Shown here: positions 16,288 to 62,689 of the stretch, piece after piece
Layout of the letters: each line of letters opens with the position of its first letter
Position numbering within the stretch: position 1 is the stretch's first letter
Source of the DNA: Mustelus asterias
Taxonomy: Eukaryota
Reading direction: 5' to 3'
DNA: 64,000 nucleotides
NCBI RefSeq assembly: GCF_964213995.1
Contig: NC_135813.1
Location: 16,306,001-16,370,000, forward strand
Translations under genes and position numbers: made by a program
Notes under the pieces: generated by a model
Databases searched by the model: none
What the model was told of the DNA's origin: nothing
What the model saw: the letters and a program-made list of their open reading frames with translations, nothing else

Positions 16288-16369
16288 GCCTCAATGGCCG
16301 AGCGGTTAAGGCATTGGACTTGAAATCCAATGGGGTTTCCCCGTGCAGGTTCGAGCCGTGCTAGCAGCA
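16288..16369 (+). pseudogene. tRNA-Ser(TGA) pseudogene or tRNA-derived insertion
   Basis: TGGCCGAGCGGTTAAGGC D-arm, perfect TTGGA-CT-TGA-AA-TCCAA anticodon arm, long variable arm GGGGTTTCCCC and GGTTCGA; the acceptor stem has 3 mismatches and the T-stem has 1. Confidence 0.85.
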
Positions 16370-21079: not shown

Positions 21080-21534
21080 NNNNNNNNNNNNNNNNNNNNN
21101 NNNNNNNNNNNNNNNNNNNNNNNNNNNNNNNNNNNNNNNNNNNNNNNNNNNNNNNNNNNNNNNNNNNNNNNNNNNNNNNNNNNNNNNNNNNNNNNNNNNN
21201 NNNNNNNNNNNNNNNNNNNNNNNNNNNNNNNNNNNNNNNNNNNNNNNNNNNNNNNNNNNNNNNNNNNNNNNNNNNNNNNNNNNNNNNNNNNNNNNNNNNN
21301 NNNNNNNNNNNNNNNNNNNNNNNNNNNNNNNNNNNNNNNNNNNNNNNNNNNNNNNNNNNNNNNNNNNNNNNNNNNNNNNNNNNNNNNNNNNNNNNNNNNN
21401 NNNNNNNNNNNNNNNNNNNNNNNNNNNNNNNNNNNNNNNNNNNNNNNNNNNNNNNNNNNNNNNNNNNNNNNNNNNNNNNNNNNNNNNNNNNNNNNNNNNN
21501 NNNNNNNNNNNNNNNNNNNNNNNNNNNNNNNNNN
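21080..21534. other. Assembly gap (455 N)
   Basis: Run of N. Confidence 1.
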
Positions 21535-34333: not shown

Positions 34334-34526
34334 GTAGAGTTAAATGTATTGTTACTCTGTTTAACTATATGCTCCCAACAACCCTACTATCTTACCTTTC
34401 ACACTCTACTGTCCTCTCTCAGTTGGAGTAGACACGCAGGCTGAGGGAGGTTAGCTTCCTGGTGTTTTAACACCTCCTTCGCTCCACGTCCTACACAGAG
34501 AAATGTGGGCTGTGCTCACTCTCTCA

Positions 34527-34595
34527 GTAAGAGTTTTAACAACACCAGGTTAAAGTCCAACAGGTTTATTTGGTAGCAAATGCATCTCCACATCA
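34527..34595. mobile_element. Short Penelope-like pLTR fragment with inverted end and an 11-bp TSD (TCACTCTCTCA)
   Basis: TSD at 34516-34526 and 34596-34606; CAACACCAGGTTAAAGTCCAACAGGTTTATTTGG body plus inverted GCATCTCCACATCA. Confidence 0.8.
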
Positions 34596-34729
34596 TCACT
34601 CTCTCACCCCAGAGATAAAATATTTTCCACTCCTTTGTGTTCATTCTGCTTGCCTGATGATAGCTTAACTGAACAAGAAGCAAAAGGCAATCCACTAAAG
34701 AATCTCCACGGTGGCCTTTCTATCAGAAA

Positions 34730-36337: not shown

Positions 36338-37493
36338 TGAGCCATCACTGTGATAGTTGCCCATTTTGATCTACGTAACAAAACGACATGTTTCTTTTCA
36401 CTTTTTAACAATTAAACTCTTTAATAAAATTGGATGTGAAATTGTCGCTGAGCAGGTTAAGCATTTCTCTCCTGACAACCAGGCATCTGGTGCGGGGATT
36501 CCGATCACAGATCTAATCATGGTAATTGGAAAACTGCATTCGAGATGAAGAGCTGTGAGTGATCCTAAATACTGCCCATCAACTTTGTGGAAATGAGATG
36601 AGCTTGAAAAATGAACTGTGCCCATTCAGATTTCAAAGAAGCTTCATTGGAAGAACTCTCACAATGTAATCTTCTTTTGAACTGCAGTGAATGGGCCATT
36701 CCCAATATGGAAGTACAGTTAAAAGGAAGGGAGAATACCTTAGGTTCTTAGCAATCTATGAATGCCTTAAACCTCGGACATGTTGCCAGCTCAGATTTGT
36801 CATCAGGTGACTGCACCCTTTTGGTTGCCCAGGGTTATTCAGTGCTCCAGCAGAGTGAAGAGGGGTTTCCAAAATAAATCCCCCCCCACTTTAGTTATCA
36901 TCCCACCTTTACTGGTCGCCTATTTATGGCCTCCTCTGATGACTCTTAAGGTGGTTGTTTTCTCTTGTGTGCATCTTAACGCATTGACCATTCATCCCAT
37001 CGATTGACCGGGGGAATAGCACAATCAAGTACGATTTTGTCACACCTGAAGTCCACATACGTGGGCTTTTTAGCCAGACTATTTGGATCAGGAGCAGAAC
37101 GTCCAGAGCAGGCATTGTGCTCTTTTCCATCAGGGATGGAATTTGTCTGCTCCAATCCATCAAGTTTCACCAAGAAAGCTGTGGTATTAGCCCCACCTCC
37201 GGCATTTACTAGCATTGTTGTTTCAAGTTGAACGAAACTTTCTGAGAAAGGTGAATTTCCTCCGGTTTCAGTGTATTCCCAGTGTATAATCAAACAGATG
37301 AAATTTGATGCAGAGGCGATTCAAATGATTAATTTTGGTAGGAAGAACACAAAGTGACAATATAAAGTAAAGGGTACAATTCTGAGGGGGTTGCAGGAGA
37401 GAGGGATCTTGTGTATGTGCACATAAATCATTGGAGGTAGCAGACCAGAATGAGAGAGTAGTTAAAGTATACAGTTCTCTAAGCTCTATTTAA

Positions 37494-37671
37494 TGATGTG
37501 GAGATGCTGGTGTTGGACTGGGGTGGGCACAGTAAGAAGTCTGACAACACTAGATTAAAGTCCAACAGGTTTATTTGGAATCACGGGTTTTCGGAACGCT
37601 GCTCCTTCATCAGGTGAGTAGGGTGTAGTCACCTGTTGGACTTTAATCTAGTGTTGTGAGACTTCTTACTG
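37494..37671. mobile_element. Penelope-like insertion with inverted arm, a 7-bp TSD (TATTTAA) and a degenerate hammerhead on the - strand
   Basis: TSD at 37487-37493 and 37672-37678; arms 37530-37570 and 37631-37671 are inverted copies. Confidence 0.85.
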
Positions 37672-37898
37672 TATTTAAAGGGGCATTGAGTACAAGGGCA
37701 ATGAGGTTCTGTTAAATTTGTATGAAAGAGTGGGTCTGCCTCAACTGGAGAATTGCATTCAGTCCTAAGTGCCACGTTTCAATAAAGATGTGAAGCATTA
37801 GAGAGTGCAGAAAAGATGCATGAGAGTGGATCCGGGTTGAGGAATTTCAGTTACGTAGATAGATTGGAGAAGTTGAGAAAGTTTTCCTCAGAGGCGAA

Positions 37899-47200: not shown

Positions 47201-48217
47201 TTCAAGAACCTGGCACTGGCTTAATGGGCTGAATGGCCAGCTGTGTTGTACAGTGCTATGATTCCACGGTGATTAGCCTACATTGTGAAATCTGCAGTAT
47301 TTGTACCATGCAGTTGTATATTCCATATCTCTGCTGACAGAATGTCCCCAGTGTTGCAGCCTTAATTGTCCTCCAAATAAACAGGCAACTTTGGGCCAGA
47401 GTTTGCAGTTGTAGTGAAGGTGTCACCGTCAACAGGCTCTGCCATTACTGAGTCGATATGACCACATTTTCTGGCCTCTGCACAGATGCTGTTAATTCCA
47501 GAGATCCAGGTGTTGCTGACAATGCTTCTCCACACCTTTGCAGATGCAGTCAACACAGAATCAGTGAATAGATGTGAACTATCCTATTCTCACTGTGTAA
47601 ACTATTGAAAATGCTAAACATTGTTGAATGAGGTATAACTGAGCTTTTAATGGTGCCCCGAAAACCTATTTTTACAAGTATGGAGTGTCATTCGCTAGTC
47701 ACACATTTAACGATTCCATTATTTTTACAGTAATATTTTTCCCCAGGTTTGTTTATTTTTCCAGCTAATACCTCAATCACATGAGTAAGTCCCACTCTTC
47801 ATTTTGCTTTCTGTGGAGTGATTAAAATGTGAATTATAAAACGTGCTTTTTATTTCCTGCTTTGCTGTCTGTGAGAATGATTAAACTTGATGAGGCGATC
47901 AGCTTGCCTGTAACCTGCACTGTTGCTAGATGCCACAGAATGTGGCAAATTCAAAATGACATCAGAATAGAGGAAATCAATGCTCTGGAGCCCCGCTAAT
48001 TCTTTGTTAGACAATGTTTCTGGAGATATGTGATGACCATCATCCTTTTGCTGCTCACTACAAAATCTGGGCCATTATGGAATAATGTCACTAATCAAGG
48101 CCATTGCAAATTCCATATAAGACCAGGATTGTTTTAATGAACTGGTCTGGATGCCACATCAGGCAGAACTGAGCAAACTGCAGCGCAAATTGCAAACTTG
48201 CTGCTTTCAAAGACCCG

Positions 48218-48435
48218 ATGTAGAGATGCTGGCGTTGGACTGGGGTAGGCGCAGTAAGAAGTCTGTAAAGACTTGCATTCCAACCATTATTTTGTAAATT
48301 GAGTTTGTGTCTATATATGCCCTGTTTGTGAACACAACTCCCACTCACCTAATGAAGGGGCAGTGCTCTGAAAGCTTGTGCCACCAAATAAACCTGTTGG
48401 ACTTTAACCTGGTGTTGTGAGACTTCTTACTGTTA
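48218..48435 (+). mobile_element. Penelope-like insertion with inverted 5' piece, a 9-bp TSD (AAAGACCCG) and a hammerhead motif with mutated core CTAATGA
   Basis: TSD at 48209-48217 and 48436-48444; CAC-CTAATGA-A-GGGGC-AGT-GCTCT-GAAA-GCTT-GTG at 48346-48380. Confidence 0.85.
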
Positions 48436-48684: not shown

Positions 48685-50545
48685 AATGTTCTCATGAATC
48701 AACCCCTGCTTGGATGGTGTTGGTTATAAAGCTGAGGAACTTTAGAATTGTCGGAAATAAACAATAAAATGCGGTCTAGATCTGTATGTGACATCCATTT
48801 CTGACGTCTTAACCAACTTTGTAGCAGTTCACATTGGTAGTTGCAAAGTAATACCACAAGCACTTAGAGAGTAGGCTGTTTTTTCAAACATTGTATATTC
48901 CCTCTTTTTTGTAAATGCAGTTACTGTGTAAATATGATTACAGTTACTTGATGAAAAGTGTGAATTTTCTGAAAGAAATAAGGTGACTTTTTTTCAATTG
49001 TTTTCCCATTTTCCTGATCAAACCAGTGCTGCCATTGATACCAAATTTGAACTGTAGAATTTGTGTTGCACCTTACTGCTCTAAAACTCATTTGAAATTA
49101 AAGTCTAATGGGGTTTGTTAAAATATGTGTGTGATATTTTCACAATGTACTCTATCATTTCTATCATATAAGAACAGGCTGGAGCTAAATATGACATAAA
49201 ATATCAATGGGTCAGATACTGATTCCAGTTCCATTGTTACCACAGTATATCGACTGTAACTTAGTTGTTAGCACTCTCGCCTTTGAGACACAAGGTTCTG
49301 GGTTCAAGAGCTTCTCACTCCTGTGCAGTTTTGTTGTCCTTTCAGTTGAGATGTGTGCATTCCAATTAACTAATTCAGCAGCAAGCTTTTGGGAGTTTAA
49401 TATAAAGATGGTTATTTATTCTCACACACTTACCTCAAATTGACACAAATTCATAAACTCAGTCTCAAATACAGACACAATGATTGGATACAGATAAAGA
49501 TAGTGCATTTTTACAAATTACAGTTAATTTGGTCTGGTATGAGGTACTTTCTCCCTGAGTGGATGAGGAAAAGTACTGTAGGGAGAATGAGCTAGCCGAC
49601 CACTGCACCGTGGTACAGGAGGCCATTCAAGAGGAGGGAGCTAAAAGACTAATTGTAGTTTAGGAGATTCTATAATTAGGGGGATTGATAGCATCTTTTG
49701 TAAGCCAGATTGTGAGCCCCACATGGTATCTTGCCTGCCCGGTGCCAGGGTGAGGGACATCTCTGACCGGCTTGAAAGGATATTGATGGGGGAGGAGGAG
49801 GAGCCACTTGCTGTGGTCCACGTTGGGACAAACAACATAGGTAAGACTAGGAAAGAGGTCCTGTTTGGGGACTATCAAGCACTAGGAACTAAATTAAAGA
49901 ATAGATCCTCAAGGGTTATAATCTCTGGATTACTACTCGAGCCATGTACAAATTGGCATAGGGTTGAAAGAATTAAGGAAGTTAACACATGGCTAAAGGA
50001 GTGGTGCGGGAAAGAGTGGTTCCATTTCATGGGGCATTGGCATCAGTATTGGAACAGGAGGGATCTGTACCGTTGGGATGGTCTTCACCTGAACCGATCT
50101 GGGACCAGTGTTCTAGCGAAAAGGATAAGTAGGGTGTTCACAAGGACTTTAAACTAGCAAGTTGGGGAGAAGGGAACAGTAAAATTACGGGAAACAAAGC
50201 AGCAGGTTAGCATGTGGGGAGAAAGTTCCAACTACATCAAAAATCAGGAAAAAAGTTAAAAGGAAGGAGAACACAGGAGATGTTATTAATAGAGGTGTTA
50301 AAATTCAAAAAGAAGGTACAACAACTAGCATAAGGGCACTCTATCTGAATGCTCGTAACATTCGAAACAAGGTAAATGAGCTGACGGCACAAATCATTGC
50401 AAATGGGTATGATTTGGTGGCCATTACAGAGACATGGTTGCTGGATGGTCATGACTGGGACTTAAATCTCCAGGGGTATCAGACTGTTTGGAGGGACAGA
50501 CAGGAAGGTAAGGGAGGTGGTGTAACTCTGATATTTAAGAATGAC

Positions 50546-50649
50546 CATTGTAAGAAGTCTCACAACACCAGGTTAAAGTCCAACAGGTTTATTTGGCAGC
50601 ACAAGCTTTCGGAGCACTGCTCCTTCATCAGGTGAATGGGAGTTGCGTC
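50546..50649 (-). mobile_element. Penelope-like 104-bp insertion inside the CR1 endonuclease region, with a 13-bp TSD
   Basis: ATTTAAGAATGAC at 50533-50545 and ATTTAAGGATGAC at 50650-50662. Confidence 0.88.
50600..50634 (-). ncRNA. Minimal type I hammerhead ribozyme motif
   Basis: Minus strand reads CAC-CUGAUGA-A-GGAGC-AGU-GCUCC-GAAA-GC-UU-GUG: intact core boxes, 5-bp stem II, palindromic AAGCUU in place of stem III and CAC/GUG stem I. Confidence 0.72.
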
Positions 50650-53600
50650 ATTTAAGGATGACATCAGGGCGATAGTGAGAGATGATATAGGTTCTATGGA
50701 AAAAATGGTTGAATCCATTTGGGTGAAAATTAGAAATAGTAAGGAGAAAAAGTCACTGATAGGCATAGTCTATAGGCCACCAAATATTGACATCATGGTG
50801 GGGCGAGAAATAAACAAAGAAATAACTGATGCATGTAAAACTAGTAGAGCAATTACCATAGGGGATTTTAATATACATGTCAATTGGTTAAACCAGGTCA
50901 GTCAAGACAGCCTTGAGGAGGAGTTCATAGAATGTATCCGCGATAGCTTCCTGGAACTATATGTAATGGAACCTACGAGGGAGCAAGCTATCCTAGATCT
51001 GGTCCTGTGTAATGAGACAGGAATAATTAATGATCTTACAGTTAGGGATCCTCTCGGAAGAAGCGATCACAGTATGGTTGAATTTAAAATACAGATGGAG
51101 CGTGCGAATGTAAAATCCAATACCAGTGTCTTGTGCTTAAACAAAGGAGATTACAATGGGATGAGGGAGGAGTTGGCCAAGGGAGTCTGGGAGCAAAAAC
51201 TTTATGGTGGGACAATTTGAGGAACAGTGGAGGACTTTCAAAGCGATCTTTCACAGTGCTCAGCAAAAGTATATACCAGTGATAAGGACTGTGGAAAAAG
51301 AGATAATCAGCCAGGAATATCTAAGGAAATAAAGAAGGGCATCAAACTGAAAGCAAATGCATATAAAGTGGCAAAGATTAGTGGGAAACTAGAGGATTGG
51401 GAAATCTTTAAAGGTCAACAAAAAGTCATGAAAAAAGCTATAAAGAAAAGTGAAACGGATTATGAGAGTAAACTAGCTCAGAATATAAAAACAGATAGCA
51501 AAAGTTTCGACAAATATATAAAATGAAAAAGAGTGGCTAAACATTGGTCCTTTAGAGGATGAGAAGGGGGATGTAATAACTGGATATGAGAAATTGGCTG
51601 AGGCATTGAACAGGTATTTTGTGTTGGTCTTCACAGTGGAAGACACAAATAACATGCCAAAAATTGATGACAGGAAGGCTATGGCAGGTGAGGTACCTAG
51701 AAACTATCATTATCACGAAAGAGGTAGTGTTGGGCAAGGTAATGGGGCTAAAGGTAGACAAGTCTCCTGGTCCTGATGGAATGCATCCCAGGGTACTAAA
51801 AGAGATGGCCGGGGAAATAGCAAATGCACTAGTGGTAATTTACCAAAATTCGCTGGACTCTGGGGTGGTTCCCACAGATTGGAAAACAGCAAATGTGACG
51901 CCACTGTTTAAAAAAGGAGGTAGACAGAAGGCGGGTAACTATAGGCCAGTTAGCTTGACTTCTGTAGTAGGAAAAATGCTTGAATCTATCAACAAGGAAG
52001 AAATAGCGAGATATCTGGATATAAATTGTCCCACTGGGAAGACGCAGCATGGGTTCATGAAGGGCAGGTCATGTTTGACTAATTTGGTGAAATTCTATGA
52101 GAACATTATGTGACAATGGGGAACCTGTGAATGTGGTGTATCTGGATTTCCAGAAGGCATTTGACAAGGTGCCACACCAAAGGCTGCTGCATAAGACAAA
52201 GGTGCACAGTGTTACGGGTAATGTATTAGCATGGATAGAGGAATGATTAACTGACAGAAAGCAAAGAGTGGGGGTAAATGGGTGTTTTTCTGGTTGGCGA
52301 TCAGTGACTAGTGGTGTGCCTCAGGGATCAGTGTTGGGACCGCAATTGTTTACGATTTACATCGATGATTTGGAGTTGGGGACCAAGTGTAGTGTGTCAA
52401 AATTCGCAGATGACGGTAAGATGAGTGGCAGAGCAAAGTGTGCAGAGGATGCTGAAAGATTGCAAAGGGATATAGATAGTCTAAGTGAGTGGGCGAGGGT
52501 CTGGCAGATGGAGTACAATGTTGGTAAATGTGAAATCATTAATTTTGGTCGGCAAAATGGACAATTAGTTAAGTGATAAAAAATTGCAGCATGCTGCTGT
52601 GCAGAAGGATCTGGGTGTCCTTGTGCATGAATCACAAAAAGTTGGTTTGCAGGTGCAGCAGGTAATTAAGAAGGCAAATGGAATTTTGCCCTTCATTGCT
52701 AGAGGGATGGAGTTTAAAGACAGCGAGGTTATGTTGCAGCTGTATAAGGTGCTGGTGAGGCCACACCTGGAGTACTGTGTACAGTTTTGGTCTCCTTACT
52801 TGAGAAAGGATATACTGGCACTGGAGGGGGTGCAGAGGAGATTCACTAGGTTGATTCCGGAGTTGAGAGGGTTGGCTTATGAGGAGAGACTGAGTAGACT
52901 GGGGCTATACTCATTCGAATTCAGACAAATGAGGGGAGATCTTATAGAAACATATAAGATTATGAAGGGAATAGATAAGATAGAAGCAGGGAAGGTGTTT
53001 CCACCGGCGGGTGAAACTAGAACTAGAGAGCATGGCCTCAAAATAAGGGGGAGCAGATTTAGGACTGAGTTGAGGAGGAACTTCTTCACACAAAGGGTTG
53101 TGAATCTGTGGAATTCCCTGCCCAGTGAACCAGTTGAGGCTACCTCATTGAATGTTTTTAAGGCAAGGATAGATAAATTTTTGAACAGTAAAGTAATTAA
53201 GGATTATGGTGAGCGGGCGGGTAAGTGGAGCTGAGTCCATGAAAAGATCAGCCATAATGTTATTGAATGGCGGAGCAGGCTCGAGGGGCCAGATGGCCTA
53301 CTCCTGCTCTTAGTTCTTATGTTCTTACGTCTCTGATTAAAGATGTCCCACGTGGCAGGCCCGTGGTTTCTTGAGTTAACATTCTTGAGGTCAATGTTGA
53401 AATTGGAACAGATTAAGTACTTTGGCTGTTTGATGACTTCCAGCTAGTTCCAGAGACTGGTCCTCAGACTGGCTGATGACTGGTTCTGATGGATCTGCTG
53501 GGATTTCGGGTAATAAAGGTACAGTCCCTGAAACCAGGTTAATCACATGGCTGCTGGATAAATACTTCTGAAGCCCAGCCAGCCTAGTTTGGATGGGGTG

Positions 53601-62587: not shown

Positions 62588-62689
62588 CCACTCCATCTGA
62601 TGAAGGAGCAGCAAGCTCCGAAAGCTTTGGTATTTGCTACCAAATAAACCTGTTGGACTTTAACCTGGTGTTGTGAGACTTCTTACTGT
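62588..62689 (+). mobile_element. Penelope-like pLTR fragment carrying a minimal hammerhead motif (62593-62630)
   Basis: CCAT-CTGATGA-A-GGAGC-AGCAA-GCTCC-GAAA-GCTT-TGG, then AATAAACCTGTTGGACTTTAACCTGG. Confidence 0.8.

Follow-up and report, generated by a model that had tools for sequence, protein, structure and literature searches.

The window, by which we mean the whole stretch of 64,000 nucleotides analysed here, contains five related short inserts, at 34527, 37494, 48218, 50546 and 62588. All five inserts of the original prediction are present, and they share 81–93% identity over their common parts. The focal insert is located in a broken LINE, where it lies antisense inside the AP-endonuclease frame and interrupts that frame. 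It is bounded by a target site duplication (TSD) and carries a predicted hammerhead ribozyme, with the following parts.

49645..53231, plus strand: broken LINE that hosts the focal insert, with PF14529 and weak PF03372
50533..50545, plus strand: left TSD of the focal insert, 13 bp, preceded by CTG at 50528-50530
50546..50649, minus strand: focal insert, a single-arm, tail-less 3′ end assigned to a Neptune-type Penelope-like element (PLE)
50550..50599, minus strand: strongly conserved terminal segment of the pseudo-LTR (pLTR), ending at the tail-less 3′ terminus, 4/47 columns polymorphic
50593-50588, minus strand: AATAAA within the terminal pLTR segment
50600..50634, minus strand: minimal type I hammerhead with all core bases kept, C3 at 50631
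50634-50632 with 50602-50600, minus strand: stem I of the hammerhead
50631-50625, minus strand: CUGAUGA, with an extra A at 50624
50623-50619 with 50615-50611, minus strand: stem II
50610-50607, minus strand: GAAA, then GC-U-U
between 50603 and 50602, minus strand: predicted cut
50650..50662, plus strand: right TSD, 13 bp with one mismatch, followed by CAG at 50665-50667

The focal insert belongs to an older 'short-spacer' subfamily, and its 5′ truncation lies ∼46 nt upstream of where the ribozyme is predicted to cut. It sits in a symmetric target, with CTG on the left and CAG on the right. The copy is a dead single-arm product whose hammerhead is whole, and the template RNA of this copy was therefore not cut at this ribozyme. 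Elsewhere in the window, a tRNA-like sequence at 16288-16369 on the plus strand (Rfam RF00005, 39 bits, mismatched acceptor stem) is probably a tRNA pseudogene, and positions 21080-21534 are a run of 455 N.

The remaining four inserts are organized as follows.

34527..34595, both strands: inverted insertion, a tail-less arm on the minus strand (to 34583) plus a tail remnant
34582-34595, plus strand: tail remnant of the 34527 insertion, 14–15 nt
34516-34526 and 34596-34606: TSD of the 34527 insertion
37494-37622, minus strand: tailed arm of the inverted insertion 37494..37672, with a degenerate hammerhead
37631-37672, plus strand: tail-less arm of the same insertion, TSD at 37484 and 37669
48217-48262, minus strand: tailed arm of the inverted insertion 48218..48433
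48264-48433, plus strand: tail-less, longer arm of the same insertion, hammerhead with G5A, TSD at 48206 and 48433
62588..62689, plus strand: single tail-less arm with an intact hammerhead core, C3 at 62597

TSDs of 11, 7, 9 and 13 bp had been proposed for four of the inserts, and these lengths were confirmed: 11 bp exact at 34527 (34516/34596), 7 bp exact inside 10 bp with one mismatch at 37494 (37484/37669), 9 bp exact inside 12 bp with one mismatch at 48218 (48206/48433), and 13 bp with one mismatch at 50546 (50533/50650). No clear TSD was found at the flanks of the 62588 insert, whose hammerhead is complete except that the 3′ strand of stem I is one base short. Three of the five (34527, 37494 and 48218) are inverted two-arm insertions, an arrangement that had been missed earlier. 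The tail-less arm at 34527 begins ∼3 nt 3′ of the cut site, which is why this insert carries no ribozyme.

Identification of the motif as a minimal type I hammerhead was borne out, as was the statement that the focal copy retains every core base. The full pattern had been assigned to four inserts; it holds for 50546 and 62588 only, since the 37494 copy has lost two stem III bases and the 48218 copy carries G5A. Stem III is indeed palindromic, but its conserved part is the four-nucleotide AGCU rather than the AAGCUU first described, as position 17 is variable (T43/C25/A21/G1 among 90 sampled copies). Motif positions such as C3, G5, N7 and H17 are given in the usual hammerhead numbering. Variation in the ribozyme core region is confined to N7, H17 and loop 2: in the same 90 copies, collected with a search pattern that tolerated ≤3 core changes, N7 is C34/T31/A21/G4 and H17 is G in 1/90. 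The extra A before stem II is present in 99% and the palindromic 15.2-16.2 GC in 99–100%, and the first stem II pair (10.1-11.1) is G-C in 82 and G-U in 7 of 90.

Conservation was evaluated with a DNA profile of the pLTR, and a column was called polymorphic at a non-CpG minor allele ≥10%. Across 94 insertions, one arm each, 0/11 core columns are polymorphic versus 76/206 upstream pLTR columns (Fisher p=0.009). The core is thus preferentially conserved and the hammerhead is not a chance pattern. The stem I pair is C-G in 52 and U-A in 23 copies, and 20 of the 23 U-A copies come from one subfamily; the compensation appears to be essentially one subfamily switch, and for this reason covariation lends thin support. 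Changes in stem II are mostly one-sided G-U, with few true two-sided changes. An Rfam scan of the window gave no hammerhead family match at E≤5; minimal motifs lie outside the Rfam models. The lowest-energy folds predicted for monomer and dimer were not the hammerhead; such a preference for other structures is in line with the weak, protein-assisted cleavage described in PMC4209133 and PMC11167929. The minimal PLE hammerheads of PMC4209133 share with the shark motif CUGANGA, an extra base before stem II, G10.1-C11.1, a short stem I and a palindromic 15.2-16.2 stem without loop 3, and both occur mostly as single dispersed motifs from truncated PLEs. The available text of that paper names no shark and contains no in vivo cleavage evidence.

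The origin of the inserts was traced by searching the genome (3.68 Gb) with the insert and with a 126-aa reverse transcriptase (RT) piece. The insert returned 1,426 first-look candidates; 40 of these were scored and 30 loci fetched. Most of the 30 extend upstream by variable lengths, and several reach a GIY-YIG-like and RT frame. The RT piece gave 23,238 first-look candidates, 150 of them scored, several within open frames >900 aa; 20 of these 150 loci, picked for long frames or paired hits, were fetched. Complete 892-aa ORFs starting from ATG were found at three fetched loci (L051, L052 and L053). In L051 the order is inverted truncated copy, pLTR, ORF, pLTR and tail, with a hammerhead in each pLTR and a tail that ends at the ATG of the ORF. 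The 892-aa protein matches Pfam RVT_1 (E 1.6e-9), and the top 8 matches in a structure search with its predicted model (mean pLDDT 65) were telomerase RTs. A putative GIY-YIG domain with a CCHH motif is recognized in the alignment (VYLI-CxxxC-WYIGE then R, H, H, E, N); no Pfam match to GIY-YIG was obtained in the ORF, and the assignment is made on the motif. A PDB sequence search with the ORF gave no match at E≤1, and a single-sequence model of the endonuclease domain had a mean pLDDT of 34. A C-x4-C-x2-C linker from RT to EN is present in 8/8 aligned proteins. For related frames the existing annotation is limited to uncharacterised proteins or to inclusion in gene models of several sharks.

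These comparisons indicate that the five inserts are almost certainly 5′-truncated 3′ ends (pLTRs) of an autonomous Neptune-type PLE. The Penelope origin originally proposed is borne out by pLTR identity with the intact 892-aa elements, retro-insertion by the four TSD-flanked inserts, and linkage to an RT plus GIY-YIG ORF by the same motif flanking the 892-aa frames. Hallmarks of PLEs are present, namely pLTRs from partial tandems, an inverted 5′-truncated copy, a 39-nt tail and a TSD. In PMC8557442 and PMC3846280, EN+ Neptune-type PLEs have a single ORF, a telomerase-like RT, a C-terminal GIY-YIG motif, a CX2-5CxxC linker and pLTRs, and EN+ PLEs show heavy 5′ truncation, an adjacent inverted copy, a 30–40 bp tail at one end and a TSD. 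The shark element has all these features and shows no difference in kind from the published description. By the definitions available in the two papers its sequence would place it in the Neptune type, with the linker as the single feature separating Neptune from Nematis, which has a reduced form of CX2-5CxxC (PMC8557442). The inserts belong to a known class, their small size is ordinary 5′ truncation of an autonomous element, and the stub itself is an ordinary dead transposon remnant.

Several side observations concern transcripts and copies of the element. On the sense strand of the L051 pLTR, a sequence resembling a splice acceptor precedes the ATG by 23 nt; some PLEs are described as having a spliceosomal intron in the 5′ UTR. 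A donor-like CAG/GTGA overlaps stem I on the antisense strand (equivalent to window 50631-50636, plus strand). Pieces of the ORF occur inside predicted shark gene isoforms, including septin 5a, XRCC5, PPP1R12A-like, USP8 and others (P0003, P0007, P0009, P0010, P0012 and P0013), and reflect either exonisation or annotation error. Four contig sets from differently coded organisms (X1, X2, X5 and X6) contain the family on L051:6200-7068, with loose ends at the two 3′ termini of the element and much deeper coverage over the last 95 nt. In these four sets, which we guess to be RNA, no joint with splice-type ends or at the cut site was seen, and contigs cannot show ends. At L060:2945-8052 two near-identical inverted and truncated units stand in tandem, 3,353 bp apart.

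The family is highly abundant, as predicted: 150 evenly spaced 10-kb stretches on large contigs (1,499,200 bases, not a formal random draw) contain 94 insertions, or 2.7% of bases, which extrapolates to ∼230,000 insertions in the genome. The inserts had been taken for a non-autonomous, retrozyme-like derivative. Such a separate family, spreading through small circular RNAs, would agree with most arms being short and without coding sequence (90/131 complete arms ≤200 bp), and animal retrozymes have been argued to derive from PLE pLTRs and reported in one chondrichthyan genome (bioRxiv 10.64898/2026.07.22.740005, available text). Like non-LTR retrozymes, the inserts are small, non-coding and PLE-related and carry a type I hammerhead. 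Retrozymes, as described in the accessible parts of PMC7229834 and the same preprint, form head-to-tail arrays with a fixed monomer of ∼150–450 bp and a ribozyme per unit, whereas the shark inserts are head-to-head stubs of variable length. Tandem copies had been proposed as a test, and no head-to-tail monomer array was found in the window or among 96 hammerhead-bearing arms in 1.5 Mb, so the inserts fall outside the retrozyme definition of those two sources; of two same-strand neighbours, one is a partial tandem with ORF sequence and the other a separate insertion. Nor do the inserts form a non-coding unit of fixed extent that is separate from the autonomous element: their 5′ ends are variable, 31/131 arms extend into the ORF, and arm sequence passes base for base into that of autonomous copies, with relatives running 5′ into the GIY-YIG/RT frame and intact pLTR-ORF-pLTR elements carrying the motif at both ends. 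A single hammerhead per arm, moreover, cannot excise a circle. A retrozyme family is therefore extremely unlikely; for these copies it was rejected, being largely refuted by the variable 5′ ends, the absence of arrays and continuity with autonomous elements.

The anatomy of the insertions shows several regularities. The 3′ termini are of two kinds that lie 39 nt apart, one without a tail and one with a tail that ends at the ATG of the ORF. The 150 sampled loci contain 135 termini, 61 tailed and 74 tail-less, and every one of the 41 inverted pairs combines one tailed with one tail-less end (p=9e-13 versus 0.5). The 41 mixed pairs divide by orientation into 25 and 16, each within one TSD. For the other 53 of 94 insertions the pairing rule identified no second arm; a few of these conceal very short partners. 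For target analysis the 41 pairs were combined with 24 from the cut-site set described below. A TSD was found in 61 of these 65 paired insertions and measures 12–13 bp in 36/61. CTG stands left of the site in 32/61 and CAG right in 30/61, against a background of 11%, and where both are present the spacing is N16 in 11/16. Targets favour a symmetric CTG-N16-CAG, and both motifs are also found at 3/4 TSD-bearing sites in the window. In short pairs (both arms ≤300 bp, n=32, nine longer pairs excluded) the arm 5′ ends lie within 6 nt of each other in 19/32 (rho 0.47, p=0.006). The tail-less arm is often far longer than its partner (2020 versus 359, 1001 versus 98, 665 versus 75; also the 48218 copy). 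Some inter-arm junctions are palindromic. Filler derived from the ORF start lies between the inverted arms at the L237, L115 and L015 junctions, which suggests template jumps on an RNA continuing past the ATG.

A further regularity concerns where the arms stop. Counts of 5′ ends were made genome-wide for the youngest subfamily, using exact matches with both preceding bases differing from the element. At the predicted cut site (position 0) 1,594 ends were counted, compared with 167–434 at its neighbours (167 at −4, 434 at −2, 427 at −1 and 389 at +4). The count of 4,212 at +1 belongs for ∼90% to a 2-nt-shorter subfamily and includes ∼420 ends of the youngest one, as estimated from 10 of the first 100 matches. 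By hand arithmetic, position 0 accounts for roughly 6% of the arms reaching the cut site, and chance matching to position-0 ends alone gives ∼480 at −1. Reading through is the common outcome: 44,115 copies of the youngest subfamily pass the site, as do 47/56 sampled young-type arms. The first 30 position-0 loci represent 29 insertions, every one of them a true truncation, and their junctions are mixed; 27/28 partner arms end at or 3′ of the site, the remaining one at −2. The peak was shown for one subfamily, the youngest. The older subfamily of the focal copy gave 467 ends at 0 and −1 together, with a control of 8,292 swamped by another subfamily (89 of the first 100 matches). Among paired arms in the 1.5-Mb sample, 5/64 end at −1 to +1 and 18/64 at −30 to −37, a cluster made mainly by older subfamilies at the 5′ strand of stem I (equivalent to window 50632-50639). 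An initiator-like motif and a near-palindrome both occur at the −30 to −37 site. A transcription start at −35 may be the cause of this cluster, which is broad and does not occur in the young subfamily.

Judged from the end counts, the peak at position 0 was probably caused by ribozyme cleavage and is likely a genomic trace of hammerhead cutting in the living animal. That the RT paused at the ribozyme structure, or that joining was biased there, with a hammerhead that may not cut in vivo, is rather unlikely. In its favour, other subfamilies pile up at −30 to −37, so stops without catalysis do occur; in the anole element of PMC11167929 no read terminated at the site, and minimal hammerheads cleave poorly in vitro (PMC4209133). 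Against it, the peak spans a single base 3′ of H17 and coincides with the foot of neither stem I (389 at +4) nor stem III (427 at −1, close to what chance matching to position-0 ends predicts). The junction fillers are also heterogeneous, and partner arms stop at position 0 too.

For the inverted arms, the insertion anatomy is most economically read as twin priming, in which both nicks prime cDNA and two start sites on a single RNA are used. This agrees with what PMC11167929 describes for the anole element, namely a pair of start sites, cutting of both strands and a protein predicted to be dimeric. Twin priming on one RNA is, in our estimate, somewhat better supported than an even chance. It is quite unlikely that the second arm arose without both nicks, through a single cDNA that primed itself or folded back, or from an antisense template (as proposed in PMC3846280). 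Palindromic junctions and arms that end nearly together (19/32 within 6 nt) would follow naturally from fold-back, but fold-back of a tailed cDNA requires the tailed arm to be the longer, a tail-less cDNA cannot yield a tailed second arm, and a symmetric target motif fits cutting of both strands. Simple fold-back was rejected on the frequent excess length of the tail-less arm. Two RNAs paired through the palindromic stem III, each serving as template for one subunit, are very unlikely; minimal hammerheads have been proposed to act as dimers (PMC4209133, available text) and joint cleavage would also stop both arms at position 0, but this leaves unexplained the matching arm ends far from the ribozyme (−92/−92, −81/−82, −55/−54 and +23/+23).

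Twin priming is also a feature of L1, where both nicks prime cDNA and a single TSD encloses the resulting inverted insertion. The second primer of L1 anneals internally at random, and there is little overlap between the arms. Both shark arms, by contrast, begin at defined sites 39 nt from each other and are copies of one segment. Another close comparison is PAc, the Poseidon element of Anolis carolinensis, as described in the available text of PMC11167929. There, too, two RT start sites bracket the tail and both target strands are cut and extended; the protein is predicted to be dimeric, and the hammerhead cleaves only with protein. The two elements differ in layout, the PAc hammerhead overlapping the start codon with the tail inside the ORF, whereas the shark hammerhead is found ∼100 nt upstream, with the tail running to the ATG. 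PAc also prefers ATT and shows no strand difference in start site; its ribozyme mutants inserted normally in vitro and none of its RNA reads ended at the cut site. Relative to EN+ PLEs in general, for which the tail is called optional or often one-sided in the parts available of PMC8557442 and PMC3846280, the one-tail rule is strict here (41/41), and a symmetric CTG-N16-CAG target bias has been measured. No report of the one-tail rule, the CTG-N16-CAG target or the hammerhead truncation peak was found in the main texts and passages searched outside subscription journals and Repbase.

Taken together, the explanation that best accounts for the inserts, to which we assign a probability of roughly 0.75, combines truncated PLE ends, a dimeric insertion machinery with two start sites, and a stop at the cut site. 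An RT-endonuclease, likely dimeric, would introduce a nick into each strand of a target with loose symmetry. Two cDNAs would then be primed from two fixed start points, on likely one RNA, and their synthesis would stop where the template RNA ends, which in some copies may be the predicted hammerhead cut. Cleavage would probably be protein-assisted and proceed through an AGCU/AGCU dimer helix. We infer the protein dimer, the twin priming, the single shared template RNA and the in-vivo cleavage from the insertion patterns. There is about an even chance that the genome holds a fossil record of Penelope integration as a whole, in which a dimeric RT-GIY-YIG protein would cut CTG-N16-CAG with a 12-nt stagger, its subunits would prime at two fixed sites on one RNA and so leave one tail per insertion, and the hammerhead would cleave that RNA in vivo.

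The findings touch on two open questions, whether minimal PLE hammerheads cut in cells and how inverted, one-tailed PLE insertions originate. Many copies and near-intact young ORFs allow base-resolution predictions of the cut position, the two RT start sites, the target motif and the stagger. The shark 5′-end peak may supply the in vivo cleavage evidence that is lacking in the available text of PMC4209133. If the fossil-record reading is true, thousands of insertions begin at a hammerhead scissile bond, and the element would provide in vivo evidence for a PLE hammerhead together with a single model for the tail, the inversion and the TSD.
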